IMG/VR virus record: IMGVR_UViG_3300011337_000066
Span: 1 to 37,020 of that record
Length of the DNA: 37,020 nucleotides
DNA from: a virus
Lineage: Duplodnaviria; Caudoviricetes
Direction: 5' to 3' (one strand)
In this document: positions 1,401 to 36,133 of the stretch, one piece after another
How the letters are laid out: every line of letters starts with the position of its first letter
How positions within the stretch are numbered: position 1 is the stretch's first letter
Notes under the pieces: model-generated
The model's database searches: none
The model's input: only the letters and a program-made list of their open reading frames with translations
Told to the model about the DNA's origin: nothing
Position numbers and translations under genes: made by a program

Positions 1401-3093
1401 AATCTTCAATGATGAGAATGTAGATGGCATTGCAGATAATATCTTTAATGCGGTAAACAACTCTGTATCCGAAGTCAAGCAAATGCAACAGCGTAAGGCG
1501 GCTGAGAATGCTCAAATGGTTGTCCAATCCCTTAAGAAGATTGACACAGACATTCGTAGTAAGTTTGACAACGTAACCGATGTTCTTGAGAAGCGCATCA
1601 TCAATATCAAGGATGGTCGTGACGGGTCTAATGGTAAAGACGGGCGTGATGGTAAAGATGGGCGTGATGGTAAAGATGGAATCAATGGTAAGCAAGGGCC
1701 ACAAGGACTAAAAGGTCAAGATGGATTAGATGGTCTTGATGGTATATCTGTAGCCAATGCAAACATTGACTTTGATGGTTCTTTGGTTATTAGCCTGTCT
1801 GATGGTCGAGAGATAAATGTTGGTGAGGTTGTATCTGCTGACGTTGCTGAAAAGATTAAAGTCATCAGCACCATGTCCACCAATGCGGCTATTGACGTAA
1901 AGGAAGAAGGAACAACAATTACCAATGGTGTAAAAAGTTTAAATTTTGTTGGTGCTGGTATTACGGCAACTACATCAGGAGATGATGTAACAGTTACTGT
2001 AGCGGGTGGCGGCGGTTCTGGCACTGTCACAAGTGTGGCGGCAACAGTCCCTACATTCTTATCGGTTACCGGTTCTCCAGTTACAACAAGCGGAACATTG
2101 GCAATTAGTTTGTCGGGTACAGCATTACCTGTTCTTAATGGTGGTACTGGTGTTACCACAAGTACAGGTACTGGCAATGTTGTTTTATCAACTAGTCCTA
2201 CCTTAATTACTCCTGTTTTGGGGACACCAACATCAGTTACTTTAACTAATGCTACAGGTCTTCCTATCTCCACTGGAGTCAGTGGCTTAGGCACTAGTGT
2301 AGCTACAGCCTTAGCTGTTAACACAGGCACTGCTGGTGCTTTTGTGGTTAATGGTGGTGCATTAGGTACTCCATCAAGCGGCACTGTTACTAACTTAACT
2401 GGCACAGCTTCAATCAACATCAACGGCACAGTAGGCGCTACTACTGCTTCTAGTGGTGCTTTTACTACCTTATCAGCTACAGGTGTCACAACTGTGCAAG
2501 CTGGAACAGCAGCAGCCCCTGCTATCACCACCACAGGCGACACCAACACAGGCATATTCTTCCCTGCGGCTGACACCCTTGCCTTTGCTGAAGGCGGTGC
2601 GGAAGTGGCAAGGTTTGATAGCGCTGGTAACTTTATATATAGCCAATCCTCTTTGGCTTGTTATGTATGGACTGCGTTTAATCCAACAAATACATCTGGC
2701 ACAACCACCAATGCACCTGCTACGGGTACAGGTTATGATACTGGGTTTGTGACAATGGTCAATTCATCTGGCACTCTTACCATTACTTTTGATATTGCTG
2801 GAAAATATCTTGTAAGCACGAATTTACAAACATCACACGCAAATACTTATTCAAACGAACGCTCAATATTTACTTTGGGTGGAACGGCGACAACAGCAAC
2901 AGGAACACAAGACCCAACATTTTCGGGGATTGATTCTGTAGATGCAAATACAACTGCAACATATCCAATATATGTGTCTGCAACTGCGGCGCAAACAATG
3001 ACAATATTGCCGACATACGAGTTAACTGGTAGTGGCACAACGGCACAGCATACTTGTCGCCCATCTGTAACTATTCAATACTGCGGAGGATAA
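1387..3093 (+). CDS. Fibre-like virion protein of phage A (coiled coil, collagen-like repeat, Thr/Gly-rich shaft, shared C-terminal tip)
   Basis: G-X-Y run, GSGTVTSV and PVLGTPTSVTLTNATGLP fibre motifs, GDTNTGIFFPAADTLAF motif. The last ~155 aa are nearly identical to 34484..35554. Confidence 0.8.
   Translation: MAIDKIFNDENVDGIADNIFNAVNNSVSEVKQMQQRKAAENAQMVVQSLKKIDTDIRSKFDNVTDVLEKRIINIKDGRDGSNGKDGRDGKDGRDGKDGINGKQGPQGLKGQDGLDGLDGISVANANIDFDGSLVISLSDGREINVGEVVSADVAEKIKVISTMSTNAAIDVKEEGTTITNGVKSLNFVGAGITATTSGDDVTVTVAGGGGSGTVTSVAATVPTFLSVTGSPVTTSGTLAISLSGTALPVLNGGTGVTTSTGTGNVVLSTSPTLITPVLGTPTSVTLTNATGLPISTGVSGLGTSVATALAVNTGTAGAFVVNGGALGTPSSGTVTNLTGTASININGTVGATTASSGAFTTLSATGVTTVQAGTAAAPAITTTGDTNTGIFFPAADTLAFAEGGAEVARFDSAGNFIYSQSSLACYVWTAFNPTNTSGTTTNAPATGTGYDTGFVTMVNSSGTLTITFDIAGKYLVSTNLQTSHANTYSNERSIFTLGGTATTATGTQDPTFSGIDSVDANTTATYPIYVSATAAQTMTILPTYELTGSGTTAQHTCRPSVTIQYCGG
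1612..1743 (+). repeat. Collagen-like G-X-Y coding repeat (9/18-bp periodicity)
   Basis: GRDGSNGKDGRDGKDGRDGKDGINGKQGPQGLKGQDGLDGLDG; repeated ggtaaaga(c/t)gggcgtgat. Confidence 0.9.
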
Positions 3094-3096
3094 ACA

Positions 3097-3327
3097 ATGT
3101 CATACGACTCAAACACACTTGCTCAATTTGAAATGCGTAAATTGCGCAATGTTTTTTTAAGAGCATCAGATTGGACTCAAATGGCTGATTCGCCTTTGAC
3201 TTCCGAAAAGAAAACAGAGTGGTCGGCATATCGACAGTTACTTCGTGATTTGCCAAACAACAGCACTCCAACACTTGATAAAGATAAAAATCTTGTTGGT
3301 GTAGTTTTTCCAACGCAACCGCAGTAA
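3097..3327 (+). CDS. Phage tail fibre assembly chaperone (copy 1)
   Basis: RxxRNxxLxxSDWTQMADSP...WxxYRQxLRDLP...FPxxP signature, immediately after a fibre gene. Confidence 0.85.
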   Translation: MSYDSNTLAQFEMRKLRNVFLRASDWTQMADSPLTSEKKTEWSAYRQLLRDLPNNSTPTLDKDKNLVGVVFPTQPQ

Positions 3328-3388
3328 AGAACAGCAAGCCCTCATCACAACCCTAACCGCCCGTATCACTGCACTGGAGTCAGCATGA
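3326..3388 (+). pseudogene. Relic 3' end of a previous tail-fibre gene (KEQQALITTLTARITALESA*)
   Basis: Start-less 20-codon frame resembling the coiled-coil end of fibre intramolecular-chaperone domains; its TGA overlaps the next ATG (ATGA, 3385-3388). Confidence 0.7.
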
Positions 3389-3675
3389 TTACTTGGAACA
3401 TCAGTCAACTTGACCGACAAACCTCTGATGGTTTTGTGACGGTTGCACATTGGCAAGCCACTGCAACAGATGGGGATTACTCTGCATCTGTGTATAACAC
3501 TTGCTCATGGAGTGATGGCACTGCAACCATTCCCTATGCCTCTCTGATGAAAGAAACTGTCTTAGGATGGATTTGGGCCAATGGTGTGGATAAAGACGCT
3601 GTTGAGGCTTCTTTGAATGCTCAGATTGAATTGAAGAAAAACCCCGTAACCGCAGTAGGTGTACCTTGGAACTAA
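3385..3675 (+). CDS. Small conserved tail-associated phage protein (copy 1)
   Basis: MITWNI...V..AHW...A.DG...YASL..ETVLGW...GVPW pattern, downstream of fibre genes. Confidence 0.75.
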   Translation: MITWNISQLDRQTSDGFVTVAHWQATATDGDYSASVYNTCSWSDGTATIPYASLMKETVLGWIWANGVDKDAVEASLNAQIELKKNPVTAVGVPWN

Positions 3676-3809
3676 ATCTCACCGTTGAAGAAGTAAACAA
3701 CATTCTTCATGTGTTGGGCGAACTTCCCACCCGCATGAATGCCTATCCTCTATTGATGAAAATCAAAGAGCAAGCGGAGGCTCAGTTACCGAAAGAGCAA
3801 AGTGAGTGA
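3666..3809 (+). CDS. Small hypothetical protein (47 aa, not in ORF track)
   Basis: TTG start, MELNLTVEEVNNILHVLGELPTRMNAYPLLMKIKEQAEAQLPKEQSE; fills the gap and overlaps both neighbours. Confidence 0.65.
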   Translation: MELNLTVEEVNNILHVLGELPTRMNAYPLLMKIKEQAEAQLPKEQSE

Positions 3810-3999
3810 AGATGTTGACAAGCGATTAGCAGTGCATGAGGCGATTTGCGCTGAACGCTACATCAAGATAGTCGATCAACTATCTGATGGGTCTAAGCGC
3901 ATGAGCAAGATTGAATATCTGCTTTACGCTGTGATTCTCGCTGTGTTGCTTGGCCCCGGCGTTGCGGCTGATTTCGTAAAGAAACTATTGGGGATTTGA
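3802..3999 (+). CDS. Small membrane protein (coiled coil plus C-terminal TM), lysis-region
   Basis: HEAICAERY motif followed by hydrophobic YLLYAVILAVLLGPG. Confidence 0.7.
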   Translation: MSEDVDKRLAVHEAICAERYIKIVDQLSDGSKRMSKIEYLLYAVILAVLLGPGVAADFVKKLLGI

Positions 4000-4000
4000 A

Positions 4001-4702
4001 ATTGACCCTCTCACGCTATTGGCAATGGCAAATGGATGTGTTGCTGCCATCCGAAAAGGGTGTGAGTTATACAAAGATGTTAAGGGCACGATTTCAGCGG
4101 CGCAAAAGACTGCTAAGGAAGTCACTGCGATTGCAGAGGAGGTTGGTGGGTTCTTTGGTTTCTTCAAGAAGAAGAAAAAGCCTACTGATAAACCCGTTGA
4201 TGCTCCAAAGCCAAAGAAAGCAGAACCCGAAGTTTGGGATGAGAATAAAGTCGTTGCTGATTTGGCGGCTAATCTCGGACAGTTCTTCAAGATTCAGCAG
4301 CAGCTTGCAGACCATATTCGTGAAGAAGAAGAAAAGTCTAAAAATGTTTATGACCCAAATCAGAACATCATGGAATCTGCTCTTAACCGAGAACTGGCAA
4401 AAACTCAGTTTGAGAAGCTATCTAAGGAAATCAGAGAGATCATGGTGTATCAATCTCCCAAAGAATTAGGGAACTTGTATACACGGGTGAACCAAATGAG
4501 GGTTCAGATCATTGAAGAACAAGAGCAAGCAAGATTGGCACAAGAAAAAAGGATTCGTGAGGCAGAATGGAAACGGCGAAAAGTAATTTCGGCAATTCAA
4601 GACAAGGCCATCTATGGGGCCATTTGCCTAATATTTCTGCTGTATCTGACTCTGTTTTTCAGCTTGCTAGTTATGGACAGAAAAGTAAGATGGGGTTTCT
4701 AG
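4001..4702 (+). CDS. Coiled-coil protein with C-terminal TM segment (start ATT 4001 or ATG 4028 uncertain)
   Basis: ORF 4019..4702 extends upstream to ATT-GAC-CCT (xDPLTLLAMA); hydrophobic C-terminus. Confidence 0.7.
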   Translation: MDPLTLLAMANGCVAAIRKGCELYKDVKGTISAAQKTAKEVTAIAEEVGGFFGFFKKKKKPTDKPVDAPKPKKAEPEVWDENKVVADLAANLGQFFKIQQQLADHIREEEEKSKNVYDPNQNIMESALNRELAKTQFEKLSKEIREIMVYQSPKELGNLYTRVNQMRVQIIEEQEQARLAQEKRIREAEWKRRKVISAIQDKAIYGAICLIFLLYLTLFFSLLVMDRKVRWGF

Positions 4703-4884
4703 TCGCACTCGTTTGTATGGTGATTGTGTTCGCCTTGATGCTTCCTTTGATCGGCAGCATTTATTACGACACGCTTGCTGTGCAGAAAGAAAGCAAAATG
4801 CAGATCGAGAGGATGGAGCGACTCCGCCAACAGCTAGAGCAAGACCGTAAAGATTTGGACAGAATGAAAAATGAGTCAAAATAA
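4690..4884 (+). CDS. Small membrane-anchored coiled-coil protein
   Basis: MGFLVALVCMVIVFALMLPLIG N-terminal TM, then a charged helix. Confidence 0.6.
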   Translation: MGFLVALVCMVIVFALMLPLIGSIYYDTLAVQKESKMQIERMERLRQQLEQDRKDLDRMKNESK

Positions 4885-4954
4885 ATTCTTGTGGTGCGTG
4901 ATTGTCATATCCATTGCGGTGGTTCTTTTACTGAGTGGATGTGAAATTGTTTAA
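4871..4954 (+). pseudogene. Orphaned 5' end of a lipoprotein gene (MSQNKFLWCVIVISIAVVLLLSGCEIV*)
   Basis: Signal peptide with LSGC lipobox, stopping three residues after the Cys where the HNH cassette begins. Confidence 0.65.
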
Positions 4955-4965
4955 GTTAAAATGCA

Positions 4966-4997
4966 AAATGCCAAACGGCGGGAACCGAATGGCATTT
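4966..4997 (+). promoter_or_regulatory. Hairpin in leader of the HNH gene, after a TAAAAT -10-like box
   Basis: AAATGCCA/TGGCATTT outer stem and CGG/CCG inner stem; AAGGAG RBS follows. Confidence 0.55.
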
Positions 4998-5024
4998 CTA
5001 ACCAACACGATGAAGGAGCATCAA

Positions 5025-5528
5025 ATGGCTGAGAAAATTTTATCACGAGATAGATTGTGCGAACTGCTAGAAGTTGACACAGAAAATGGCATTTTCACTT
5101 GGCGGCACACAATGGGTGGTCGGGCCAAGAAAGGTCAGCAAGCTGGCGCGTTAGGTGCTAATGGTTATGTCTCCATAGGCATTGACCAAAAAGATTTTTT
5201 GGCACATCGTTTAATGTGGCTTTATGTATATGGCGCAATCCCTTTGCTTCAAATAGACCACATTGACAGAAACAGAACCAACAACAAACCTATTAATTTA
5301 CGACTTGCCACACAAAAGCAAAATAGCGAGAACATCTATCGTATAAAAACAAATACATCCGGTTACCGCGGTGTTCGGTGTGAAAGCAGACTTTCCTCAA
5401 AACCGTGGTCAGCAACAATCACGCATAACTATAAACAAAAACATCTTGGTTATTATGCAACTGTTGAAGAAGCGGTAACAGCACGCAAAGCTGCGGAAGA
5501 TTTATATTTCACACACCATATGCCATGA
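5025..5528 (+). CDS. HNH homing endonuclease with C-terminal AP2-like DNA-binding domain
   Basis: AHRLMWLYVYG...IDHIDRNRTNNKPINLRLATQKQN (HNH) and NTSGYRGV...WSATI...HLGYY..EEAV.AR..AE (AP2); AAGGAG RBS before ATG 5025. Confidence 0.93.
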   Translation: MAEKILSRDRLCELLEVDTENGIFTWRHTMGGRAKKGQQAGALGANGYVSIGIDQKDFLAHRLMWLYVYGAIPLLQIDHIDRNRTNNKPINLRLATQKQNSENIYRIKTNTSGYRGVRCESRLSSKPWSATITHNYKQKHLGYYATVEEAVTARKAAEDLYFTHHMP

Positions 5529-5752
5529 TTAAAAAACTAAGTTTTATATTGTTGGCAATAAGTGCATTAACGGCTTGTTTTGAAGACAGGTACCGCTATA
5601 TTTGTCAGAACCCCGACAAGTTTGATCTTCCCGAATGCCAAAAGCCAAAGTGTTTATTCACGCAGACTTGCCCCGAGTATCTAGTCGCCCCTATCTTGAC
5701 AAACAAGATTGAACCGCCCAAAGTTGAAAAGGCCGATGATGACAAAAAATAA
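5525..5752 (+). CDS. Cys-rich lipoprotein
   Basis: MIKKLSFILLAISALTAC lipobox; four further Cys in the mature part; ATGA overlap with the HNH stop. Confidence 0.75.
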   Translation: MIKKLSFILLAISALTACFEDRYRYICQNPDKFDLPECQKPKCLFTQTCPEYLVAPILTNKIEPPKVEKADDDKK

Positions 5753-6200
5753 ATACACACCCGAAGATTTAGAAGTCCGGATATGGGGCTTTGTGGTCGT
5801 GATGATTACGATCATTCTTTTCGGCATCGTCTTTGCACTGCTCTATAGTGTTACTTTCGTAGTACAACCTATCAAGAGTATGGCCCCGATAGATCAAGCC
5901 TACACAAAGATGCTGAACGACATTGTTCTTCTCATTGTTGGCGGCATCGGTGGAATCGTTGGTAAACGGGCTGTAGGGTCGATAAATAACGCAGTAAGCC
6001 CTACCCCAACAGTTTCAACGCCTTCTAGCCCACCTATAACGCCTCCTACGCCATCAAACGCTTTGCCCGTGTGGGTCAATCCTCCGCTTGATGAAAGTTG
6101 GGTTCCCCCACCTCCCCCCACTACCCCACCCCAACATCTAGAGGCTGATTCAGTGCGTGAAGAAATCGCTGCTGCTCGGCATGAGGTGAAGAATGGTTAA
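5736..6200 (+). CDS. Two-TM membrane protein with Pro-rich tail (holin candidate)
   Basis: Two hydrophobic segments; directly upstream of the spanins and endolysin. Confidence 0.55.
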   Translation: MMTKNKYTPEDLEVRIWGFVVVMITIILFGIVFALLYSVTFVVQPIKSMAPIDQAYTKMLNDIVLLIVGGIGGIVGKRAVGSINNAVSPTPTVSTPSSPPITPPTPSNALPVWVNPPLDESWVPPPPPTTPPQHLEADSVREEIAAARHEVKNG

Positions 6201-6684
6201 CCCATACTTCATCATTGGGGCGATGATTGCTGTGGGCGGTGCTTACGGCTACGGGCATCATGTTGGATGGGGAGACCGTGACGCTGAAATGCAAATCGAG
6301 ATCTCCAAAAAGAACGATGAAGCAAGAGAGAAAGAGCGCGAACTTGCCCAACAACTGAATGACCAATCAACCAAACTGTCGGAGGCCAATAATGTCATTA
6401 ATCAAAAGCAGTCTAGTCTTGATCGCGCTATTCGTGATGGTCGGTTGCGCCTCCAAACCACAAGTTGCGTACAAGCCACCACAAATGCCCCCACTCCCAC
6501 CGGAGATAGCCCAAAAGAGAGAAGTGAACCTAACCGACCGGTTTATGAAACTTCTGACTCCGACCGAGCAACACTCGCAGCAATCGCCGAAATCATCGCC
6601 CAAGGCGACAGAAACACGGCCCAACTAAATTCGTGCATTTCTGCTTACGAGAAAGCAATGGAGATCATCAATGGTAAACGCTGA
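6193..6684 (+). CDS. Rz: Inner-membrane spanin (Rz-like)
   Basis: N-terminal TM, coiled coil, G.LRL motif, C-terminal GD.NT.QLN.C; adjacent to the endolysin. Confidence 0.85.
   Translation: MVNPYFIIGAMIAVGGAYGYGHHVGWGDRDAEMQIEISKKNDEAREKERELAQQLNDQSTKLSEANNVINQKQSSLDRAIRDGRLRLQTTSCVQATTNAPTPTGDSPKERSEPNRPVYETSDSDRATLAAIAEIIAQGDRNTAQLNSCISAYEKAMEIINGKR
6392..6628 (+). CDS. Rz1: Outer-membrane spanin lipoprotein (Rz1-like), embedded in Rz in the +1 frame
   Basis: MSLIKSSLVLIALFVMVGC lipobox then Pro-rich KPPQMPPLPP; GGAGG upstream. Confidence 0.8.
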   Translation: MSLIKSSLVLIALFVMVGCASKPQVAYKPPQMPPLPPEIAQKREVNLTDRFMKLLTPTEQHSQQSPKSSPKATETRPN

Positions 6685-7264
6685 CCAACTAAAGAAACTC
6701 CATATTGGGGCTGAGTGGGTTGATGCACTCAATGAGACCTTTGTTAAGTTCGGCATTAACACCAAACGCCAACAAGCTGCCTTTATCGGTCAGTGCGGAC
6801 ACGAGTGCGGACACTTCAAGACATTGGAAGAGAACCTTTTCTATAGGGCTGAGACGCTAATGAAGCTGTGGCCTAAGAGGTTTCCCACTTTGGACTTTGC
6901 TAATCAGTACGCACGAAATCCTAAGAAGATCGCCAATATGGTCTATAGCGGTCGCATGGGCAACCGTGATGAGGCAAGTGGGGATGGGTATCGGTTTCGC
7001 GGTAGAGGCTGCATTCAGTTGACCGGACACGCTAACTACTTCCATGCCGGACAAGCACTCGGAGTAGATTTTGTGATGGAACCCGATCTAGTTGCCACAC
7101 CTAAATACGCTGCACTCACTGCCGGATGGTTTTGGTCTACGCATGATTGCAACCGTCTCGCGGAGGAAGCGAATTGGACGGCTCTCACAAAGAAGATTAA
7201 TGGTGGCGTGATAGGGTTTGACGATAGGATTAACCACACCAATCAAGCCTTATCGGTCTTGTGA
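6671..7264 (+). CDS. Endolysin, glycoside hydrolase family 19
   Basis: AAFIGQCGHECG.F..LEENL.Y, GDGYRFRGRGCIQLTG..NY, AGWFW, TKKINGG..G..DR. Confidence 0.93.
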   Translation: MVNADQLKKLHIGAEWVDALNETFVKFGINTKRQQAAFIGQCGHECGHFKTLEENLFYRAETLMKLWPKRFPTLDFANQYARNPKKIANMVYSGRMGNRDEASGDGYRFRGRGCIQLTGHANYFHAGQALGVDFVMEPDLVATPKYAALTAGWFWSTHDCNRLAEEANWTALTKKINGGVIGFDDRINHTNQALSVL

Positions 7265-7401
7265 CGCTTGACCATTCTGAGGACATTCTCATGTGATATG
7301 AAGCGATGCCCGTTATAGCACTCCCTTCGTCTGACAAGCATATTCTCCTCAGTTTTGGTGTGTTGAACAAACGAGATTGCTTTGCACTCGGGACACTTCA
7401 T
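7243..7401 (-). CDS. Small zinc-ribbon protein (NrdR N-terminal-like)
   Basis: MKCPEC...RRRECYNGHRF.S.E. Confidence 0.7.
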   Translation of the reverse strand: MKCPECKAISFVQHTKTEENMLVRRRECYNGHRFISHENVLRMVKRHKTDKA

Positions 7402-7420
7402 GCCGGAGTTATTGGTACTC

Positions 7421-7525
7421 TTAGGATTCATTGAGGGCAAGCCAAACCATAAAACAGATACAAAGAACAGATAGTGCGATTCCTAAGAACCCCAAAGCAA
7501 AGATAGTAAATATCGTCTCGATCAC
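7421..7525 (-). CDS. Small membrane peptide (34 aa)
   Basis: GTG start overlapping the upstream stop; almost wholly hydrophobic (IFTIFALGFLGIALSVLCICFMVWLAL). Confidence 0.45.
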   Translation of the reverse strand: MIETIFTIFALGFLGIALSVLCICFMVWLALNES

Positions 7526-7674
7526 ATCACACCCCTCATTTCCCAACCCAATAAAAAATAATTCCACCTTGTTGTCATATTGGCATTTGTGAACTTCTCA
7601 CCGTCCCATTCAAGTTCTGATTCAGCATAGCCTTTACCCGTCATGAGGGCAATAAAAACTTGTCGTGCTTTCAT
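7522..7674 (-). CDS. Hypothetical protein (50 aa)
   Basis: MKARQVFIALMTGKGY...WNYFLLGWEMRGVM; AAGGAG RBS and ATGA overlap. Confidence 0.65.
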   Translation of the reverse strand: MKARQVFIALMTGKGYAESELEWDGEKFTNANMTTRWNYFLLGWEMRGVM

Positions 7675-7913
7675 GTGCTCTCCTTGAGTTTGGCTTCAAA
7701 CAAACGCAACACCATTTCACGGAACAACAGGCGGTCTTGACTGTGTCGATATGCGTTAAACAAATGCTTATCATCCATATCTTTGATGGCTATCTCACGC
7801 CCGTCTTTTGTTGTCCATACCTCTGTGCGAAAGGTGCGTCTTGCTTCTTCTATTTCCCATGCGCGTTCTGCAAGTTGCATTTTTGCCTCGTAGTCATCGT
7901 ATGAATCGCTCAT
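7671..7913 (-). CDS. Hypothetical protein
   Basis: WTTKDGREIAIKDMDDKHLFN motif; GGAGG RBS; coupled overlaps. Confidence 0.65.
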   Translation of the reverse strand: MSDSYDDYEAKMQLAERAWEIEEARRTFRTEVWTTKDGREIAIKDMDDKHLFNAYRHSQDRLLFREMVLRLFEAKLKEST

Positions 7914-8071
7914 GCGCCCTCCTTTGGTGGTGTACAAGTGTGAATGTCCTTGGTGCGTTTACCGCATCGTGAGCAGAAGTTCTGCTCTGTGCGCTGTGGT
8001 GGCTGAGGCTGTGTTGTTCTTGCTGTACCAACATGGCGGTCTTCGCCCCTTAAATAGCGTCCTACATTCAT
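7910..8071 (-). CDS. Small Zn-finger-like hypothetical protein (53 aa)
   Basis: ...QNFCSRCGKRTKDIHTCTPP; AAGGAG RBS; ATGA overlaps at both ends. Confidence 0.55.
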   Translation of the reverse strand: MNVGRYLRGEDRHVGTARTTQPQPPQRTEQNFCSRCGKRTKDIHTCTPPKEGA

Positions 8072-8322
8072 GCGTTCTCCTTTGGTGGGTAGTTGTTGCT
8101 ACTGCAAGCCACACACTCGTAAAGCACCTTTGCTTTGCAATCGGGGCATATAGGCTCTTGCTCAATCTCTTGACCAAGGCGCTGCACTTCGCTCATAGCG
8201 TGTTCTGCCAATGCTTTTTCAATGGCGGTGATGGCCTCTGCTGTTCCGCATGGCTCACCACCATGACACCATTTCAACGCCTCAAGCGCCATCTTCATGG
8301 CCTTTAATTGTTGTGGTGTCAT
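8068..8322 (-). CDS. Hypothetical protein with C-terminal CxxC-CxxC
   Basis: MTPQQLKAMKMALEALK...CPDC...CVAC; coupled overlaps. Confidence 0.6.
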   Translation of the reverse strand: MTPQQLKAMKMALEALKWCHGGEPCGTAEAITAIEKALAEHAMSEVQRLGQEIEQEPICPDCKAKVLYECVACSSNNYPPKENA

Positions 8323-8588
8323 GTGTTCCCCCTTGCTTCGATTGCCTCTATACACGCCGCAACAGCATGACGCTCCTTAAAACTTGACAATGGTTGCCCA
8401 GTGGCATATTTAGAAGACAAAAAAACTTTGAACAACTTTTTGCACTCTTTCACACACCTCTCACGCTCTATTGCTGTGGCTTTTTCTTCAACCAATGCGG
8501 CAAATTCTTCAGCCGCCTTTTGCCAGTCTGGGTGTCGAATTGGAAAGCCAACCTGCTTTGCCAACGCAATGATCTCATCAGGTGTCAT
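8319..8588 (-). CDS. Hypothetical phage protein
   Basis: MT.DEII.LAKQ.G...FAALV...ERERC...IEARG pattern; coupled overlaps. Confidence 0.7.
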   Translation of the reverse strand: MTPDEIIALAKQVGFPIRHPDWQKAAEEFAALVEEKATAIERERCVKECKKLFKVFLSSKYATGQPLSSFKERHAVAACIEAIEARGNT

Positions 8589-8728
8589 AACTTCACTCCT
8601 TCATACCAACCCTCGACATACATTTCGTGGAACCCCCAAGCGAATAGCCAAGTCCAACTGAGTGGCTTATTGTGTGGAAATGTTATTTGTGCCATGTGCA
8701 AACAAAAATCTTTATTTGGTGGTCTCAT
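8585..8728 (-). CDS. Hypothetical protein
   Basis: MRPPNKDFCL...; GAGG RBS; ATGA overlaps. Confidence 0.55.
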   Translation of the reverse strand: MRPPNKDFCLHMAQITFPHNKPLSWTWLFAWGFHEMYVEGWYEGVKL

Positions 8729-8943
8729 CGCTTCATTCCTCTGATGTACACAGTAAACGATTGAATCGTGTCTTTTCCAAAGGCCAACGAGCATTTCTCA
8801 ATGTGTTGGGCAACTTCTTCAATCACTTCGTTTCGCGCATTGGTTTCGGCGTATCGGATTATTTGGTGTTTGCGCGACCCTTGAAGTCCCCAATCGCCTT
8901 GTCTGCGACTGAGTTCTTCAAACGCTTCATCTTCCGGACTCAA
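8725..8943 (-). CDS. Hypothetical protein
   Basis: RNEVIEEVA..IEK...FGKDTI.SF..YIR.MK; in the coupled leftward operon. Confidence 0.65.
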   Translation of the reverse strand: MSPEDEAFEELSRRQGDWGLQGSRKHQIIRYAETNARNEVIEEVAQHIEKCSLAFGKDTIQSFTVYIRGMKR

Positions 8944-10376: not shown

Positions 10377-10576
10377 TTGGAATCCTTTGCAATGAGTTCG
10401 GTTTGTAGGGTTTTGATTTCGTCACGGGCGTTGTCGATGTGGTTGACCAACACGCGAATGTGGCCTTCCAACATCTGAATGCGGTAAAGCAGTCGTTCAG
10501 CTAGATCGATCTGAGGTTCGCGGTATAAAGTCTCTGAGGTTTGTTTGACAGAATTGATGATGTAATCAGCGTCCAT
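10373..10576 (-). CDS. Hypothetical coiled-coil protein
   Basis: GGAG RBS; coupled to neighbours. Confidence 0.6.
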   Translation of the reverse strand: MDADYIINSVKQTSETLYREPQIDLAERLLYRIQMLEGHIRVLVNHIDNARDEIKTLQTELIAKDSK

Positions 10577-26168: not shown

Positions 26169-26171
26169 AAA

Positions 26172-27448: not shown

Positions 27449-29097
27449 TGCCTACTCAAAGAATCGCATTAGGTGAATGGTTACCCGATCAACCGGGGTT
27501 GACGGGGGCATTAACTGTTGCAAAGAACTGTTATCCGGTGACTGCGGGATACGGGGCTTTCCCATCTGAGGCCAACTTCTCGGCTGCGGCTGCGGAGGAT
27601 TTGACCTCAATCATTTCTGCCAAAGACCAAAGCGGCACGACAAAACTCTTTGCTGCTGGCCTACACAAAATCTACACGGTGGATTCTGTTGGGGCTTTAA
27701 CGGGTGTTTTTAGCTTCACGGGTACATATGCCCAAAGTGGCACGACCACTCTGACGGTGACTTCCATTGCTCACAAGCTGAAAACGGGCGACTCTGTTTA
27801 CTTGGATTTCACAAGTGGAACGGCTGTAGATGCTCAATTCACCGTGACTAAACTCACTGCGGACACATTCACTGTAACGACCACCTCCGCGACAACTTCC
27901 GGCAATGTGACTATCTCGTCTACCTCTTTGGGGTACAACACGGGCGCATCTGATCGGTTTCGATTCACCCTATTCGGCAATCAGATCATTGGGACAAACT
28001 TTACTGAGAGGCTACAAGTCTATTCAGCGGATGGTAGTTCGTCATTCAAGAATCTGTCAGACAGTGCGCCAATCGCTAAGTTCATCACTGTTGTTAGAGA
28101 TTTCGTAGTCTGCGCCCATTTGGACGAGAGTGGCACGACTCGCCCATATCGAGTGCGGTGGTCTGCGATCAATGATGAGACCGATTGGGTTGAGAATGTA
28201 AACACTCAATCTGACTATCAAGACATTCCCGATGGTGGACACATCACGGGCATTCGCGGTGGCGAGTTCGGGATTATTCTGTTGGAGAAATCAATCTCTC
28301 GGATGAGTTACGCCGGAACACCGTTCATCTTCCAATTTGACAATATCTCTCGCGGTAAGGGCTGTATCGCTGCGGGGTCGGTTTGTCAGTATCAAGGGCT
28401 AACCTTTTTCTTGTCGGACGATGGGTTTTATGTCTGTGATGGGCAGAAAGTCACGCCTATCGGTGCTGAGAAGATTGATCGCTTCTTCTTCAATGATGCG
28501 AATTTAGACTTGACATCAATGTCGGCGGCGGCAGACCCAATCCGCAAGATGATTATGTGGAATTACCTCTCGACTGATGGCACAAGAAAGCTGATTGTGT
28601 ACAACTTCACGATTGGCAAATGGTCGTTGATGGAGACCACATCGGATTACATTTCTGACGCTTCAACTGCCTCTGTGACTGTTGAACAGTTGGATTCGAT
28701 TAACGCTTCGATTGATGCTTTGCCCGTAAGCATGGACTCGGCTCTTTATGCTGGTGGAAAGTATTTTCTCGGCGGTACTGACGGGACACGGGTTATCACA
28801 TTCACCGGAGCAAACAAATCAGCGGTGTTAGAAACGGGCGATATTGATGCCGGACGCTCGATAGTGATGTTGGCTCGACCTTTGGTTGATAACGGCTCTG
28901 CTAGTGTTTCTGTGGCCTCTCGGACGCTTCTAACGCAAAGTCTGTCCTACAGCACAGCGACCGCGGCTGATACTGATAACCGAGTGTCTCTGAGAAGTTC
29001 CGGCAAGTACCATCGTTTGCGGATGCAACCAACTGGCGACAATTGGAAAACCGCGATGGGTTTGGATGTTGATGTTGTCCAACAAGGCATCCGGTAA
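27445..29097 (+). CDS. Putative tail nozzle / packaged-DNA stabilisation protein (P22 gp10-like beta-propeller)
   Basis: GEWLPDQP N-terminus, RVRWSAIND..DW, GC.A.GSV, FFLSDDGFY, IG.EKID.FF; size and position. Confidence 0.7.
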   Translation: MMPTQRIALGEWLPDQPGLTGALTVAKNCYPVTAGYGAFPSEANFSAAAAEDLTSIISAKDQSGTTKLFAAGLHKIYTVDSVGALTGVFSFTGTYAQSGTTTLTVTSIAHKLKTGDSVYLDFTSGTAVDAQFTVTKLTADTFTVTTTSATTSGNVTISSTSLGYNTGASDRFRFTLFGNQIIGTNFTERLQVYSADGSSSFKNLSDSAPIAKFITVVRDFVVCAHLDESGTTRPYRVRWSAINDETDWVENVNTQSDYQDIPDGGHITGIRGGEFGIILLEKSISRMSYAGTPFIFQFDNISRGKGCIAAGSVCQYQGLTFFLSDDGFYVCDGQKVTPIGAEKIDRFFFNDANLDLTSMSAAADPIRKMIMWNYLSTDGTRKLIVYNFTIGKWSLMETTSDYISDASTASVTVEQLDSINASIDALPVSMDSALYAGGKYFLGGTDGTRVITFTGANKSAVLETGDIDAGRSIVMLARPLVDNGSASVSVASRTLLTQSLSYSTATAADTDNRVSLRSSGKYHRLRMQPTGDNWKTAMGLDVDVVQQGIR

Positions 29098-29879
29098 TGT
29101 TTAGGTTACTTCCTAATTTTGGTGGTGAACCGAGAGCGGTTGCGGAGATTGTCAACGGCATCATGAATGGCAAGACCAACAATGTCGGGATTGTCACGCT
29201 TGCCACCGGAGGGGCGACCACTACAACCATCACTGATAGACGCATTGGGGCAGACAGTATCCTACTGTTTACACCTCTCACAGCGGCTGCAAATGTTGAT
29301 TCTGTGCCTTACGGGGCATTTCAAGACAGTACAGACCAAACAGCGGCAAACACTACAACTGCTTACGCCATCACTTTTGACACGACAGATTATTCAAACG
29401 GTGTAACTCTGTCCAACAGTAGCCGATTGAATGTGTCGAATGCGGGTGTGTATAACATTCAGTTCAGTATTCAGTTTAAGAACACGACAAACGACACTCA
29501 AGATGTGGATGTGTGGTTTCGCAAGAACGGGACGAACATTGACAAGTCAAATTCTCGGTTTGGTTTGCAAGCTCGCAAATCATCGGGAGACCCCTCGCAT
29601 TCAATTGCAGCGTTAAACTTCTTTGTCGAATTGGCGGCAAGTGACTATGTAGAGATCATGTGGAGGCCATCGGACACGGGTGTATCAATCGAACATTACA
29701 CGGCAAGCACAACCCCAACCCGTCCCGCTGTGCCCTCTGTAATTGCTACATTAAGTTATGTAAACACATCATCATCGTTCAATGTGTTTGTCAGTGCAAG
29801 GGGTAAGGGAACCGCTACGCTGACACACTTTGCCAATTCAACCGCTGACAAAACATACGGATATGTAATTGTTGGCTGA
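29097..29879 (+). CDS. Structural protein with internal beta-sandwich domain
   Basis: Internal PYGAFQD...GVYNIQFSIQF...VWFRKNG..I..S...DYVEIMW...PSVIAT segment. Confidence 0.65.
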   Translation: MFRLLPNFGGEPRAVAEIVNGIMNGKTNNVGIVTLATGGATTTTITDRRIGADSILLFTPLTAAANVDSVPYGAFQDSTDQTAANTTTAYAITFDTTDYSNGVTLSNSSRLNVSNAGVYNIQFSIQFKNTTNDTQDVDVWFRKNGTNIDKSNSRFGLQARKSSGDPSHSIAALNFFVELAASDYVEIMWRPSDTGVSIEHYTASTTPTRPAVPSVIATLSYVNTSSSFNVFVSARGKGTATLTHFANSTADKTYGYVIVG

Positions 29880-29934
29880 TACAATGACTCTAGTGGATGA
29901 CCCCGCCGGAGTCCTTTTAATGAAAGGATAAGTC

Positions 29935-30864
29935 ATGGCAACGCAAATGCAGACCTCTACGACCACAACGGCTGTAGACCCCACTATTCAACCATATCTC
30001 ACTTATGGACTGTCTGAGGCACGAAAGCAATACGAAGGTGGTGGCCCACAGTTCTACCCCGGTCAAGGGTATGTAGGCCCATCCACTGCCACACAAACCG
30101 CACTGCAAGCCCTACAAGCAAGGGCAATGGCGGGTAACCCTCTGTTGGGTCAAGCGCAAGGCAATGTAAGTGGGATGCTCGCGGGTGATTATCTTGGCGG
30201 TAACCCATTCTTTCAAGGCGCATTCCAACCCGCTGCGACTGCGGCACAAACTGCATTCCAAAAGTCTATTGGTGACATTTCCTCTGCTGCCTCAAAAGCC
30301 GGACGATATGGCTCGGGTGCGATGGGTGACCTTCAAAGTCAAGCGGCTGGAACCTTTGCACAAAAACTTGCAGACACTGCGGGTAAGCTCTCTTACGAGA
30401 ATTACGCTCAAGAACGCCAAAACCAAATGCGAGCACTCGGCATGGCTCCGGGCCTTGCAGAGGCCGACTATGGCGACATAAACAAGTTATTGGGTGCTGG
30501 TCAATTGGGTGAGGGTTATCAAACCTCTGCACTGCAAGCGGATATGGCGCGGTATAACTTTGAGCAAAACGCACCTCAGAGAAACCTAACGAACTATCTG
30601 AATATGGTTTATGGGTTCCCTGCTGGTCGGACACAGACGCAAACCACACCGTATTACACGAACCCAACCGCTACGGCATTGGGTACGGGTTTGCTCGGAC
30701 TGAATCTGTACAACGCCGGAAATCAAGCAACCGGAGGCGGATTAACCAATTTCTTCAAGAGTGGGTGGAACACATTGACAAGTGGCTTTGGTGGCGGCTC
30801 TCCTGTTAACACGGGTCTATATGATGACTACTCAAGACGCAATGATGTTGATACCAACTTCTAA
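29935..30864 (+). CDS. Putative internal virion / DNA ejection protein
   Basis: Gln/Gly/Ala-rich; PYL..GL..A, AGRYGSG motifs; position typical of podovirus ejection genes. Confidence 0.65.
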   Translation: MATQMQTSTTTTAVDPTIQPYLTYGLSEARKQYEGGGPQFYPGQGYVGPSTATQTALQALQARAMAGNPLLGQAQGNVSGMLAGDYLGGNPFFQGAFQPAATAAQTAFQKSIGDISSAASKAGRYGSGAMGDLQSQAAGTFAQKLADTAGKLSYENYAQERQNQMRALGMAPGLAEADYGDINKLLGAGQLGEGYQTSALQADMARYNFEQNAPQRNLTNYLNMVYGFPAGRTQTQTTPYYTNPTATALGTGLLGLNLYNAGNQATGGGLTNFFKSGWNTLTSGFGGGSPVNTGLYDDYSRRNDVDTNF

Positions 30865-30872
30865 GGATAATC

Positions 30873-32273
30873 ATGGCACTACTTGATATTTTTGGTACGA
30901 CTCCTTCCTACTACGGTGGGCTATTGGGTGAGGATGAGTTAAATCGCGTCCGGCAACAAGCCCAACAGCAAGCACTGCAAAACACTGCATTGGCTCTTTT
31001 GCAAGCTGGCGCACCAAGCAGAACGCCGGGGAACGAAGCACTCGCCATTGCTCAAGGTCTACAAGGTGGTCAGCAAGCCTACAGACAGACTATGCAAGAG
31101 GGTTTGCAAGACAAGATGCAGCAGATGCAGATTCAAGACTATCAGCGCAAACAACAAGAGGCACAAGCGCAAAGAACTCGGCAAGAGCAAATGCGTCAGA
31201 TGTTCCCGCAAATCTTTACGCAGACTGTCACACCCGAACAGCAAACAATGTACGGGGAATCGGCTCGGGTGGTTCGTGATGATGAAGGCAACTTGATGCC
31301 GGGGGCACAGATTACCCCTGCAAAGCGGGAAGTTAATGTAGATATTGACAAGCTAAAAGTCTTGTCTATGCTGTCAAATGACCCGCTGTCTACATTCTTT
31401 AACATTGCAGAAAAAGTCCCTGCATTGCGTAAAGCCGGATTTGTCGGCGGTATGCAGCAAGAAAACCCATTCTCTGTATTCTCAAAGGATGAGAGCATTC
31501 CCGCACCATTACGGGCTGTGGCGGCTCAATACGAGCGAAGCTATGCAACGGGTCAAATGGATCAAGAAACTGCTGATAAACGGTTGGAGACTATTGGGCA
31601 ACGGGTTCAGTCTGCTCAACAGTTTGCACAGACACAAGCCGGAATTGAAGGGCAACGAGAGTTTGCAAATCAACTACAGCGTGAATTGAAGGATTTGAAA
31701 GCGCAAGGGTTGCAAGATTCCAATCGCTTCAAAGAACTTTCAGCACAAAACACAGCGGCTTTGCTTGATCTCAGACGCTCACAAGAGGCCAACAAGCCGG
31801 AAACATTCTCATACGCTCAAAAGAAAGAATTTGATGTTGTAACGAGAGCAAATGAAGAAGCACGAGTAGCGGCTGACAGTGCCGCAATTGCTGATCGTGC
31901 TATTCCATTGGTTTCACAAGCCTATACGGGAAGGCTTGAATCTGCATTTAAAAATGTCATTGGTGCTGCTGGTTACTCAACTGAGGCCAAAGATGCCAAT
32001 GATGCTTTGATGAGACTGCAAAACCAATTGGCTGTAAAAACTCCTAAGTTTAGTGGCCCAACATCAAATGCTGATGCAGCCCGTTACGACAAAGCTGTGG
32101 GTGATTTGGCTAATCCGAGTGTGTCCGGAACTGAAAAACTCCGAGCATTGAAAGACATTAAAGAATTGTCAGATAAAGCCAAAAACTACGCCTCACAGCA
32201 AGAAAACTATTTCTACCAAAACAACAAGTCGTTGCGCGGGTTTAACTTTGAAGATAATCCATTCGGACGGTAA
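30873..32273 (+). CDS. Putative internal virion / DNA ejection protein
   Basis: Gln-rich helical; GPTSNAD motif; AAGGA RBS. Confidence 0.6.
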   Translation: MALLDIFGTTPSYYGGLLGEDELNRVRQQAQQQALQNTALALLQAGAPSRTPGNEALAIAQGLQGGQQAYRQTMQEGLQDKMQQMQIQDYQRKQQEAQAQRTRQEQMRQMFPQIFTQTVTPEQQTMYGESARVVRDDEGNLMPGAQITPAKREVNVDIDKLKVLSMLSNDPLSTFFNIAEKVPALRKAGFVGGMQQENPFSVFSKDESIPAPLRAVAAQYERSYATGQMDQETADKRLETIGQRVQSAQQFAQTQAGIEGQREFANQLQRELKDLKAQGLQDSNRFKELSAQNTAALLDLRRSQEANKPETFSYAQKKEFDVVTRANEEARVAADSAAIADRAIPLVSQAYTGRLESAFKNVIGAAGYSTEAKDANDALMRLQNQLAVKTPKFSGPTSNADAARYDKAVGDLANPSVSGTEKLRALKDIKELSDKAKNYASQQENYFYQNNKSLRGFNFEDNPFGR

Positions 32274-32275
32274 AC

Positions 32276-34474
32276 ATGGCAACCACAAAAGACATTTCTT
32301 TGTTGATTCAGCGTCCGGAACTTGCAGACAAGTTTGATAAGGTCTATGGCGAAGGCGCGGCAGCAAAGATTCTTGCTCAAGCCAAACCCCAAAGGAAAGA
32401 AGAAAAAGCCGGAAGTTTTGAGCAATACATGGGCGCGGCTACACGGGGTCTTGCGCCCTCTGTTGTTGGTGGTGCAGCCTTAGCCCCACTCGGGCCAATT
32501 CCGGCTCTTGTCGGGGCATCTGCTACGGCGGGTGGGGATTTCATCAATGGCTTGATTAACCTCATATTGGCGGGTGGCGAAAAGGTCAGCGGTCAACAAA
32601 TGCCGAGACTGCAAATGCCTTCTCAAGTCGTTCAAGACTTGATGACACGGGCGGGAGTCGCAAAGCCTACTGATGTTGGCCCACAGTTGGTAGAGGCCGG
32701 AATGGGTGCATTGGGTGGCACTGCTTCTCAACTGCGCTCGATGCAACAACTTGCACAAGCTGCACCTTCCATCACTCAAAAGATTGCTCAACAGATGGCA
32801 CAGCGTCCGGTTGCTCAGATGGTGGTTGCACCTCCGGCGGGTGCTGCGGCTCAATTGACTGCTCAAGCTGCCCAACCGTATGTTGGTGACATTGGTGCTA
32901 TGTTGGCGGGTATGTTGGGTGGTACTGCGGTCGGTGGTGTTGGAATGGCTGTACCAACTCGGCCCCGTCCCGCACCGAGCATGGCAGAGCAACGGGCAGC
33001 AAAAGTGGCGCAGACTGCGGTTGATCTCGGGTTTGAGGGTGAATCAGCGTTAACACCGGCTCAACGGGGAACCAACCGAACGGCACAAATCTTTGAGGGT
33101 GTTGTTTCCAATATCCCCGGCAGTGCTGGACAGATGACTAGACGCTACATGACCCAAGCGGATAAGGCAGAGCAAATCCTTAACTCATTGGCGGCTAAGT
33201 TTGGCGGTATGCCGGATGCACCCGACACGGCAATGAGTGTGGCGGCGAATGCTGTGCGTAATGCTGTGGGAAAAAATGTGGATGACATTGGGTCAAGCAT
33301 TCGTGAAGTGGCATCAAAGTCTGATATTCCTCTGAGTGAAGTGCCGAACTTCCAAGATCAGATCATGAAGATTCGTGCGGGATTGAAGTCAATTCCTCCG
33401 GCATTCAGACGCGACCCATTGTTTCAAGGGTTTGAAGAATTCTATTTTGGCAAGCCCAATGGCGAATTGGCGGCTAATGTCGAATCGTTCATGACTGAAT
33501 CCGGAATTAATCGCATGAGTCCTAAGTACGCACAGACTGCGGCACAAGTGCGTAAACAGTTGATTGACAGCGGTATGCCCGAGTTTGAGTTTGAAGGGTA
33601 CGCACAGAGAGGGTTTATCCCCGGCTCGGATTATCAAGATCAACGGGTTTTGTTTGGTCAACTTGCAGAGGCACAAAAAGGCACAAAGGTGGGTCAAGCA
33701 TTCCGACAACTGCAAAAAGAATTGGACAATGCGCGAGAAGTCACATTCAAGAATGCCGGTATGGATGATGACCTCAAAGAACTGCGCTCCCTTCGTGCTT
33801 CGTATGGTGACGCTCTTGACCTAAAGCAACGATTCTCAACGGCAAAGGATGCTACTGTTGTTCGCTCAATCTCCACAAACGAGAGTCAAGCGGCTAACAA
33901 TGTGATTCCTTTGTTGGACAATGAAGGAAAGCTAAGACTCGCTCAAGGCGTATTGGCTGACATTAAATTGGAGTCTTTGAGTCCGGCGGGTGATTTGGAC
34001 ATTACCAAATTTGGCAAGACCATCATCAACCGTAACGAACGCTCACCCGCTACATTGCCAAACATCTTTGGAATGGAGGACGCAAGCACGATGATCGGTT
34101 TGGCAGATGTTGCACAGACAGCATTGAAGGCAAAGATTGGTAGTTCAATGACTACTGAGCGAACCGGAATGAAAGAAATGCTTACATCCACTCCGGCTAA
34201 AGTTGGTGCAGCTATGGCGGGTGGTACTGCTTTGACGGGTGAACCGTTCTTAGGTACTGCATTGGCTCTCGGTACTCCGGCATTGGCAACGAAAGCATAT
34301 TTGTCACCAACCGTTCAAAGTCTCTATGAGAGAATGAATGTAGTAGACCCATTGCTAAACTACATGAGAGCACCAATCAATCCAATGTTGGAATATGCTG
34401 CATCTCCCAATCTTTTGTATTCTGCACCGCAAATCCCGTACATTGAATTGCGCGGAATGGCTCAACCGGACTAA
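32276..34474 (+). CDS. Large putative internal virion / DNA ejection protein
   Basis: 732 aa, Ala/Gly-rich hydrophobic helices; last of three ejection-like genes. Confidence 0.6.
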   Translation: MATTKDISLLIQRPELADKFDKVYGEGAAAKILAQAKPQRKEEKAGSFEQYMGAATRGLAPSVVGGAALAPLGPIPALVGASATAGGDFINGLINLILAGGEKVSGQQMPRLQMPSQVVQDLMTRAGVAKPTDVGPQLVEAGMGALGGTASQLRSMQQLAQAAPSITQKIAQQMAQRPVAQMVVAPPAGAAAQLTAQAAQPYVGDIGAMLAGMLGGTAVGGVGMAVPTRPRPAPSMAEQRAAKVAQTAVDLGFEGESALTPAQRGTNRTAQIFEGVVSNIPGSAGQMTRRYMTQADKAEQILNSLAAKFGGMPDAPDTAMSVAANAVRNAVGKNVDDIGSSIREVASKSDIPLSEVPNFQDQIMKIRAGLKSIPPAFRRDPLFQGFEEFYFGKPNGELAANVESFMTESGINRMSPKYAQTAAQVRKQLIDSGMPEFEFEGYAQRGFIPGSDYQDQRVLFGQLAEAQKGTKVGQAFRQLQKELDNAREVTFKNAGMDDDLKELRSLRASYGDALDLKQRFSTAKDATVVRSISTNESQAANNVIPLLDNEGKLRLAQGVLADIKLESLSPAGDLDITKFGKTIINRNERSPATLPNIFGMEDASTMIGLADVAQTALKAKIGSSMTTERTGMKEMLTSTPAKVGAAMAGGTALTGEPFLGTALALGTPALATKAYLSPTVQSLYERMNVVDPLLNYMRAPINPMLEYAASPNLLYSAPQIPYIELRGMAQPD

Positions 34475-34483
34475 GGACTAATC

Positions 34484-35554
34484 ATGCCAAAAGTAAAAAT
34501 CAGCGAGTACAGCGCAACCGCTAACTCAAACACAGATGTAGCATCAATCAACATTGATGAGGGCTGCGCCCCGAGTGGCATCAATAACGCCATTCGTGCG
34601 GTGATGGGCCATCTGAAAGACTTTCAGCAAGGAACCTATGGAGACCCGTTTAATGGCCCCGTGAATGGTACTGTGGGTGCAACCACTCCGAGTACGGGTG
34701 CGTTTACTACGCTGAGTGCATCGTCTACTGTCACCCTGTCCGGCGGCACAGCCAATGGTGTAGCTTATCTCAATGGCTCCAAGGTGCTGACTACGGGTAG
34801 TGCGTTGGTGTTTGATGGTACGAATTTGGGTGTGGGGCAAGCAAGTCCTTCTTTTAAAATAGATGCCCAAGTTGCCGTTGGCGGGGCAATAGCAGTTAGA
34901 CCATCAACAGCAACAGGAAATGCTTTGCAAACAGCATTGCGTTTATATGGTTCAGTAGCAACAACATCATCTAGGTATGCTCAGATTGCCTGTTACAACG
35001 ATACTGCTGGTGAAGATGCAAACGCATTAACATTTAGTACGGGATTCGGCGCAACTATTTTTGAGCGCGGTCGTTTTTCTTCGGATGGTAACTTTATATA
35101 TACCCAATCCTCTTTGGCTTGTTATGTATGGACTGCTTTTAATCCAACAAATACATCTGGCACAACCACAAATGCACCTGCTACGGGTACAGGTTACGAT
35201 ACTGGGTTTGTGACAATGGTCAATTCATCTGGCACTCTTACCATTACTTTTGATATTGCTGGAAAATATCTTGTAAGCACGAATTTACAAACATCACACG
35301 CAAATACTTATTCAAACGAACGCTCAATATTTACTTTGGGTGGAACGGCGACAACAGCAACAGGAACACAAGACCCAACATTTTCGGGGATTGATTCTGT
35401 AGATGCAAATACAACTGCAACATATCCAATATATGTGTCTGCAACTGCGGCGCAAACAATGACAATATTGCCGACATACGAGTTAACTGGTAGTGGCACA
35501 ACGGCACAGCATACTTGTCGCCCATCTGTAACTATTCAATACTGCGGAGGATAA
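34484..35554 (+). CDS. Tail fibre protein of phage B
   Basis: Anchor N-terminus (ISEYS.T...NTD...INI.EGCAPSGINNAIR..M), LSGGTANGVAYLNGSKVLTTGSAL.FDGTNLGVG motif, shared C-terminal tip. Confidence 0.85.
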   Translation: MPKVKISEYSATANSNTDVASINIDEGCAPSGINNAIRAVMGHLKDFQQGTYGDPFNGPVNGTVGATTPSTGAFTTLSASSTVTLSGGTANGVAYLNGSKVLTTGSALVFDGTNLGVGQASPSFKIDAQVAVGGAIAVRPSTATGNALQTALRLYGSVATTSSRYAQIACYNDTAGEDANALTFSTGFGATIFERGRFSSDGNFIYTQSSLACYVWTAFNPTNTSGTTTNAPATGTGYDTGFVTMVNSSGTLTITFDIAGKYLVSTNLQTSHANTYSNERSIFTLGGTATTATGTQDPTFSGIDSVDANTTATYPIYVSATAAQTMTILPTYELTGSGTTAQHTCRPSVTIQYCGG

Positions 35555-35557
35555 ACA

Positions 35558-35788
35558 ATGTCATACGACTCAAACACACTTGCTCAATTTGAAATGCGTA
35601 AATTGCGCAATGTTTTTTTAAGAGCATCAGATTGGACTCAAATGGCTGATTCGCCTTTGACTTCCGAAAAGAAAACAGAGTGGTCGGCATATCGACAGTT
35701 ACTTCGTGATTTGCCAAACAACAGCACTCCAACACTTGATAAAGATAAAAATCTTGTTGGTGTAGTTTTTCCAACGCAACCGCAGTAA
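35558..35788 (+). CDS. Phage tail fibre assembly chaperone (copy 2)
   Basis: Identical protein to 3097..3327. Confidence 0.85.
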   Translation: MSYDSNTLAQFEMRKLRNVFLRASDWTQMADSPLTSEKKTEWSAYRQLLRDLPNNSTPTLDKDKNLVGVVFPTQPQ

Positions 35789-35849
35789 AGAACAGCAAGC
35801 CCTCATCACAACCCTAACCGCCCGTATCACTGCACTGGAGTCAGCATGA
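35787..35849 (+). pseudogene. Relic fibre 3' end (copy 2)
   Basis: Identical to 3326..3388. Confidence 0.7.
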
Positions 35850-36133
35850 TTACTTGGAACATCAGTCAACTTGACCGACAAACCTCTGATGGTTTTGTCA
35901 CCACTGCACATTGGCAAGCCATTGCAACAGATGGGGATTACTCTGCATCTGTTATCGGCACTTGTTCATGGAGTGATGGCACTGCAACCATTCCCTACGC
36001 CTCTTTGACAAAGGAAACTGTCTTAGGATGGATTTGGGCCAATGGTGTGGATAAGGCGGCTACTGAAGCTGCTTTGGCTGCTCAGATTGAGTTGCAAAAG
36101 AATCCTGTGACTGCCACTGGAGTGCCTTGGTGA
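35846..36133 (+). CDS. Small conserved tail-associated protein (copy 2, diverged)
   Basis: Homologue of 3385..3675 with multiple substitutions after codon 17. Confidence 0.75.
   Translation: MITWNISQLDRQTSDGFVTTAHWQAIATDGDYSASVIGTCSWSDGTATIPYASLTKETVLGWIWANGVDKAATEAALAAQIELQKNPVTATGVPW

Follow-up and report, generated by a model that had tools for sequence, protein, structure and literature searches.

A nested two-phage contig with a shared tail-tip cassette is very probably a chimeric assembly of two phage lineages

Introduction

Can a complete phage genome lie inside another phage, or does a contig that presents it in this way reflect an error of assembly? The question is raised by the virus contig IMGVR_UViG_3300011337_000066, whose entire 37,020 bp make up the stretch of DNA analyzed here (the window) and whose record is rated 100% complete. 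In the window, a genome of 32,461 bp (phage B) is bounded by two copies of a cassette encoding a tail-fibre tip, and genes of another phage (phage A) lie outside the copies. The initial annotation described a whole phage nested within a second one and held an artefact to be at least as likely. Depth steps, stand-alone circular relatives and the joins found among relatives favor the artefact, whereas a truly nested phage is not what our results support. We consider it very probable that the nesting is an assembly chimera through the shared tail-tip cassette, with B inserted into A, meaning that the sharing of the cassette between A and B is real and the nesting probably is not.

Results

Layout of the contig

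When the contig was compared with itself, the sole long self-match joined 2625-3669 with 35086-36130 (1,046 columns, 96.0% identical, offset 32,461), bearing out the direct repeats of about 1.05 kb that had been claimed to surround a 32,461-bp genome. Each copy contains the last ~155 codons of a fibre gene, a tail-fibre assembly chaperone gene (PF16778) and a DUF7936 gene. On the plus strand, copy 1 (2625..3669) carries the chaperone at 3097..3327 (PF16778, E 1e-16) and the DUF7936 gene at 3385..3675 (PF25590), and copy 2 (35086..36130) carries them at 35558-35788 and 35846-36133. The core at 2737..3437, also on the plus strand, is a 701-nt run identical between the copies, which differ to its left at 2642, 2676, 2709 and 2736 and are ~83% identical to its right; the initial annotation had placed the core and all four differences exactly. 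In the contig, the two copies thus have 4 differing sites in the first 813 nt, with up to 6 further ones in public runs, and third copies of the tip found elsewhere are more distant, at 92-97% identity. The direct repeats bound a whole genome with reciprocal flanks, as a single-crossover cointegrate requires, and an assembly artefact predicts the identical sequence.

This equivalence can be stated in terms of words. Up to k = 702, the nested contig and a separate A plus a circular B have identical sets of k-letter words at each k tested, the first difference appearing at 703, and short reads can therefore not decide between nested and separate genomes. The earlier claim that an assembler would yield the same contig from a shared segment of ~700 bp holds in this sense. 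The 701-nt identical stretch would exceed the span of short reads.

Stand-alone relatives and joins

Both phages have relatives that stand alone. Two B-type circles are known, G005 with 32,320 bp (127-nt end repeat) and G010 with 33,370 bp (123-nt end repeat), and of 33 B genes tested, 30 are present in G005 and 29 in G010. The unique part of B (3670..35085) plus one repeat copy gives the 32,461-bp unit genome, and the interval is colinear with both circles, in line with the claim that B becomes colinear when circularised. The A-type circle G008 has 33,293 bp, a 131-nt end repeat and, among the 40 of its 66 listed frames that were scanned, its own terminase, portal and capsid. These circles are relatives of B and A at ~85-97% nucleotide identity and not the same strains. 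Of the 33 B genes, only 10 have a match in G008, namely the terminase (34%), a TGT-like pair, a segment of the fibre, one replication gene and genes of the lysis region, and the capsid, scaffold and portal of B have no match in it at E 1e-4. A and B are real lineages, separate from each other.

The joins in relatives were followed from both sides. Among 38 close B contigs found by a search with a B structural protein, 18 stop before the fibre and 5 inside it, 14 continue into the start of B and 1 continues into A. The loci with an A portal formed 59 groups (at least 85% nucleotide identity) from a sample, for the most part the 80 top hits of at least 460; 25 groups end early, 33 lead to the A right-hand genes and 1 leads to B. 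Parental joins, A to A and B to B, are the rule among relatives.

The layout of the window recurs in one record, G001 (L161, L162; 38,684 bp), likewise rated 100% complete, which runs from an A portal and fibre through a whole B to a second fibre and the A right-hand genes. The repeat in G001 consists of another fibre tip (3527-4805 and 35571-36846; 1,279 nt, 94.7% identical) with an identical run of 638 nt. Nested layouts have so far occurred where the A and B strains have more than 600 identical bases in common. The recurrence fits a recurring misjoin and a recurring recombinant alike and is not decisive. A further contig, L099, is probably another misjoin and was kept out of the nested count; at 2074-7987 its B-type lysis block is inverted and precedes the start of a B fibre, which continues into an A head module.

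Depth in public runs

Parts of the first 10 kb of the window are carried by 20 public runs, all stored as contigs; 12 of these hold 85-91% of its words, and X13-X20 hold 0.20-0.27 of them. Depth was taken from four runs of one study (X1, X4, X5 and X12), which may include the source sample. The depths are per-contig values among the listed pieces of at least 250 nt, for both contig ends. In X1, X4, X5 and X12, respectively, the depth was 11.1, 13.9, 14.7 and 6.0 for the strain-specific A flank, 31.8, 42.7, 17.9 and 7.3 for B, and 34.6, 55.0, 26.8 and 10.2 for the core. The B/A ratio was 2.9, 3.1, 1.2 and 1.2, where a single molecule would give 1 throughout, and the core was 1.09-1.49 times as deep as the deeper part in all four runs. 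The initial annotation had named a coverage step at the repeats, together with spanning reads of parental joins only, as the mark of a chimeric assembly, and such a step is clear in X1 and X4 and missing in X5 and X12. The equal depth expected of the partners in a cointegrate is thus approached in X5 and X12 (near 1:1) and not seen in X1 and X4 (~3:1), where about two thirds of B can therefore not carry the A flank. In three of the four runs, bin depths of 100-400 were seen over the conserved A genes, which are fragmented into many short pieces; the contig may end where it does because the graph of the A genes breaks into short strain pieces.

Variants inside the core

The 701-nt core is probably not identical in nature. 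Run contigs show a second allele at 3000, 3009, 3012, 3032 and 3057 with a depth of 19.8 of 32.8 in X5 and 4.4 of 8.8 in X12, and X5 also differs at 3095. These internal variants divide the identical run into segments of 263 and 342 nt, both within reach of ordinary read pairs. The changes at 3000, 3032 and 3057 recur in independent copies of the tip (L082, L318 and L319). X1 and X4 have no such variant cluster, and at 2676, 2709 and 2736 they show only the allele of B even though the A flank is present, meaning that minor alleles were dropped in these runs; X5 keeps the A alleles at these three sites. Each difference retained in the window lies at most 42 nt from the next and is chained to a flank, and in G001 the corresponding limit is 95 nt. 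This chained pattern is expected if isolated bubbles were collapsed, and a recent recombination tract would look similar. The collapse of strain variants within shared regions as bubbles is described for metaSPAdes (PMC5411777, in the text available). The DUF7936 alleles do not sort by lineage, as 8 of 14 A loci are closer to copy 1 and 6 to copy 2, and 8 of 11 B loci are closer to copy 1 and 3 to copy 2; they can therefore not phase the joins.

A shared pool of tail tips

The tip reaches beyond the two genomes in the window. In the A-type contig L081, this tip and its chaperone occur at 97% together with part of a B-type fibre stem. A third backbone, G004 (L082), carries the tip at 94%, and tip and chaperone together at 92-94%, and otherwise matches the window in short pieces only; the tip is also found in the short contigs L318 and L319. 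The fibre C-terminus and chaperone are therefore common to unrelated backbones, as a shared host-recognition module would be. When fibre islands from contigs with parental joins were compared, 12 of 16 B islands matched one of 34 A islands over at least 250 nt at 88% or more, in a comparison of A against B islands only, without a control set of unrelated phages. Four pairs had long matches of 890-1,080 nt (91-94%), an exact run of 499 nt was common to one pair, and many of the shorter matches sit near the island end, probably in the DUF7936 gene.

On these comparisons, the tail-tip modules of the A and B lineages come from a common pool, an exchange of known kind. The likely route is that fibre-tip modules are swapped by homologous recombination when both phages infect a shared host, and the tip identity of up to ~99% suggests a shared host as well as recent exchange. 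Attempts to characterize the tip gave a weak C1q-like lead only (a single look-alike cluster, 17% of whose members have C1q), and no solved relative was found. An exact 26-nt core pattern had no match in viral contigs, and a chaperone-gene pattern had 2 viral matches and 4 in metagenomes, two of these coming from the same contigs. A look-up of hosts found none; the best cultured match of the B capsid was Methylophilales phage Venkman at 55%, and the A portal reached 23-27% only.

Genes of the two phages

The A flanks begin with a portal gene truncated by the contig start (3..1400, plus strand; phrog_1216 portal, E 2e-21), which has relatives at 90-97% amino acid identity in many viral contigs. 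It is followed by a collagen-repeat fibre of 568 aa with the shared tip at its end (1387..3093, plus strand; PF01391 and tail-fibre PHROGs), the last 178 columns of which are 92% identical to the B fibre. The A portal is 21% identical to the B portal over 354 aligned columns, consistent with the claim of a second, dissimilar portal on the left. On the right, the claimed A genes are recovered in part. Two small genes of 80 and 77 aa (36127..36586, plus strand) follow the fibre island in A relatives and have nucleotide matches of 90-99% downstream of the A portal at many loci. The start of a likely A scaffold gene, truncated by the contig end (36636..37019, plus strand), is 100% identical at the amino acid level in several A contigs and has no confident family match of its own; the scaffold label is given because its full-length relative in G008 lies ahead of the capsid gene and matches a scaffold family weakly (E 5e-4).

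The B interval holds the full set of genes claimed for it (terminase, portal, scaffold, capsid, tail and lysis, with ERF, YqaJ, NinB and RusA), found by family matches. Those given in this paragraph with coordinates are on the plus strand except the YqaJ exonuclease and ERF annealase (9163..10376, minus strand; PF09588, PF04404). A spanin and a glycoside-hydrolase-19 endolysin (6193..7264) are 51% and 83% identical at the amino acid level to A-type G008. The RusA resolvase (13019-13435; PF05866) and NinB (13650-14051; PF05772) span 13019..14051. Small and large terminase subunits and an SU10-type portal (18155..21752) were recognized by family matches and are followed by scaffold, major capsid, adaptor and gp80-like genes (23301..26558; phrog_3927, PF17236, PF24175, PF23140). 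The B fibre of 356 aa (34484..35554) has the shared tip at its end, and its start is conserved in B relatives. A satellite and helper relation between B and A was considered and is ruled out, as terminase, portal, scaffold and capsid genes are all present in B itself.

Other genes of the interval deserve mention. A TGT-like gene (phrog_887) and a Vut_1/YhhQ transporter gene at 14048-15201 resemble the DpdA and YhhQ pair, which has been linked to 7-deazaguanine DNA modification (PMC6884629, in the text available). Their identities to A-type G008 are 93% and 77%, and both are absent in B-type G005 and G010; on these identities the pair is a second module common to the A and B lineages. A gene of 417 aa without a family match (21780-23033) lies between the B portal and scaffold, and since 137 of its residues match A-type G009 at 70%, it is possibly another shared module. 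An HNH endonuclease gene at 4935-5528 is polymorphic in the population and missing from most B relatives, and contigs of X4 and X5 skip 4942-5578. Just upstream of the terminase genes, at 16929-18152, a ParB-N domain is fused to a DNA methyltransferase, and four degenerate repeats with 30-nt spacing (27281-27411) occupy the 3' end of a 296-aa tail-region gene.

Discussion

The arrangement of the window is best accounted for by a path through an assembly graph. A and B would replicate as free phages, probably with overlapping host range, and swap fibre-tip modules by homologous recombination, for which ERF, YqaJ and RusA are candidate enzymes. If one A strain and one B strain of the community carried the same tip, the cassette would become one edge of the graph with two entries and two exits, on which B would close a loop. 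The path from the left part of A through the repeat, B and the repeat again to the right part of A would then be the only one that uses every unique edge once, and the collapse of isolated differences within the cassette would give the perfect run of 701 nt. In the text available, interspecies repeats are a documented cause of misjoins between genomes (PMC5411777, PMC5610896), chimeras made up <5% of contigs of at least 10 kb in simulations (PMC5610896), and viralFlye counts chimeras of two viruses (PMC8862349). Our literature search found no paper on two-phage chimeras through a shared tail fibre.

Several points weigh against a chimera. The core depth is 0.77-0.97 of the sum of A and B and is not exactly additive, and B is never below A, so that a mixture of the cointegrate with free B also fits, with X5 and X12 near 1:1. 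The assignment of the core variant to A follows from depth only, and no listed contig piece covers the core plus both flanks. Counting the window along with G001, 2 of the 16 informative B contigs are nested, a high rate for an error. Lastly, a search of main texts, the Unicycler and plasmidSPAdes papers included, gave no paper describing exactly the loop path proposed here.

The main rival is a real cointegrate, in which a single crossover in the cassette, between A and B genomes replicating in one cell, put B inside A and the molecules, or headful-sized cuts of them, were common enough to assemble. The contig sequence is exactly the product of one such crossover, ERF is encoded by both phage types, and RusA is present in B and a Holliday-junction resolvase in A-type G008. 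Moreover, the layout recurs in G001 with another cassette, B/A is ~1.2 in X5 and X12, contigs of 37-39 kb are only modestly above one genome length, and since exchange between A and B does occur, a single-crossover product is a plausible intermediate. However, B/A is ~3 in X1 and X4, and the whole fusion would be ~66 kb, i.e., two genome lengths against units of 33 kb. B between direct repeats of 1 kb should also loop out by the same recombination, the contig ends in A genes with fragmented strain pieces and not at a defined packaging end, and 14 of 15 B and 33 of 34 A informative relatives show parental joins. Our literature search found no paper on a phage-phage cointegrate with headful packaging. 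We therefore regard a cointegrate as unlikely, and it is just as doubtful that the window and G001 are real single-crossover intermediates of tail-tip exchange that form often in co-infected cells. Even more remote is a stable nested prophage or plasmid-like element, with A resident in a host, B recombined into it and both carried by the lysogen. Such an element would remove the packaging limit and let the left part of A persist at 6-15x in four runs. However, PF00589 (tyrosine integrase) and PF00239 (serine integrase or resolvase) were each found in 0 of 5 records (the window, G001, G008, G009 and G010), while controls were positive in 14 of 14 and 12 of 14 genomes, respectively, and no integrase was among the 40 G008 frames scanned. 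No short att core was found, the only long repeat being the 1-kb coding cassette, without a tRNA gene in the window. The absence of an evident integrase or short att core had already been pointed out in the initial annotation, and the lack of an integrase or resolvase in these records also counts in favor of a chimera. Furthermore, the A portal occurs in only 2 loci of a bacterial genome collection, on contigs of 25.8 kb and 1.6 kb, the retrieved part of the former matching phage G008, and no host genes were among the family matches in the window.

A different issue, compatible with a chimera, is where the common tip came from. A and B may not have exchanged it directly, both having drawn on a wider phage pool on the same host surface. 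The tip and chaperone in L082/G004 at 92-94%, their occurrence in L318 and L319, and the mosaic A and B islands with many partners speak for this, whereas the two copies in the window are closer to each other than to any third copy found (92-97%). We consider the wider source possible, though somewhat less likely than not.

With a chimeric assembly as the favored reading, the window shows that a contig rated 100% complete can hold a whole phage plus head genes of another, and a misjoin seen twice for the same lineage pair would mislead taxonomy based on the portal gene. That two common uncultured lineages with unrelated capsids use one pool of fibre tips is ordinary in kind and usable. If the joins between A and B were real, the window would have caught in nature an intermediate in the exchange of receptor-binding modules between two abundant, unrelated freshwater lineages of lytic phages.

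The proposed chimera resembles those through interspecies repeats (PMC5411777, PMC5610896, PMC8862349; text as available) in that co-existing genomes are joined at a region longer than the read span, and in that strain differences in the shared region are masked as bulges. Unlike these, a circular partner here makes the join reciprocal and leaves direct repeats on both sides of a complete genome, the record has a completeness rating of 100%, and the layout recurs for the same lineage pair in G001.

The exchange itself also has precedents. De Paepe et al. (2014) reportedly described recent transfers of genes between distant phages, with an enrichment of recombinases. Such transfers are common and linked to recombinases according to the available text of PMC8136500, and there, as in A and B, a few highly similar genes lie in otherwise dissimilar genomes together with an ERF-type annealase. 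Unlike those phages, A and B have no detectable integrase, and with none in either partner we infer co-infection and not a prophage donor as the setting. The Alteromonas phages A5, V22 and P24 (PMC10579305, in the text available) likewise have a fibre and chaperone common to phages with unrelated head genes. Receptor binding was assayed for the Alteromonas module, while the A and B tips are known from sequence alone. The Alteromonas module shows 58.8% similarity, and an old origin was proposed for it, whereas here several different tips are involved and the copies are 96% identical overall and ~99% in the tip, and the exchange would therefore be recent.

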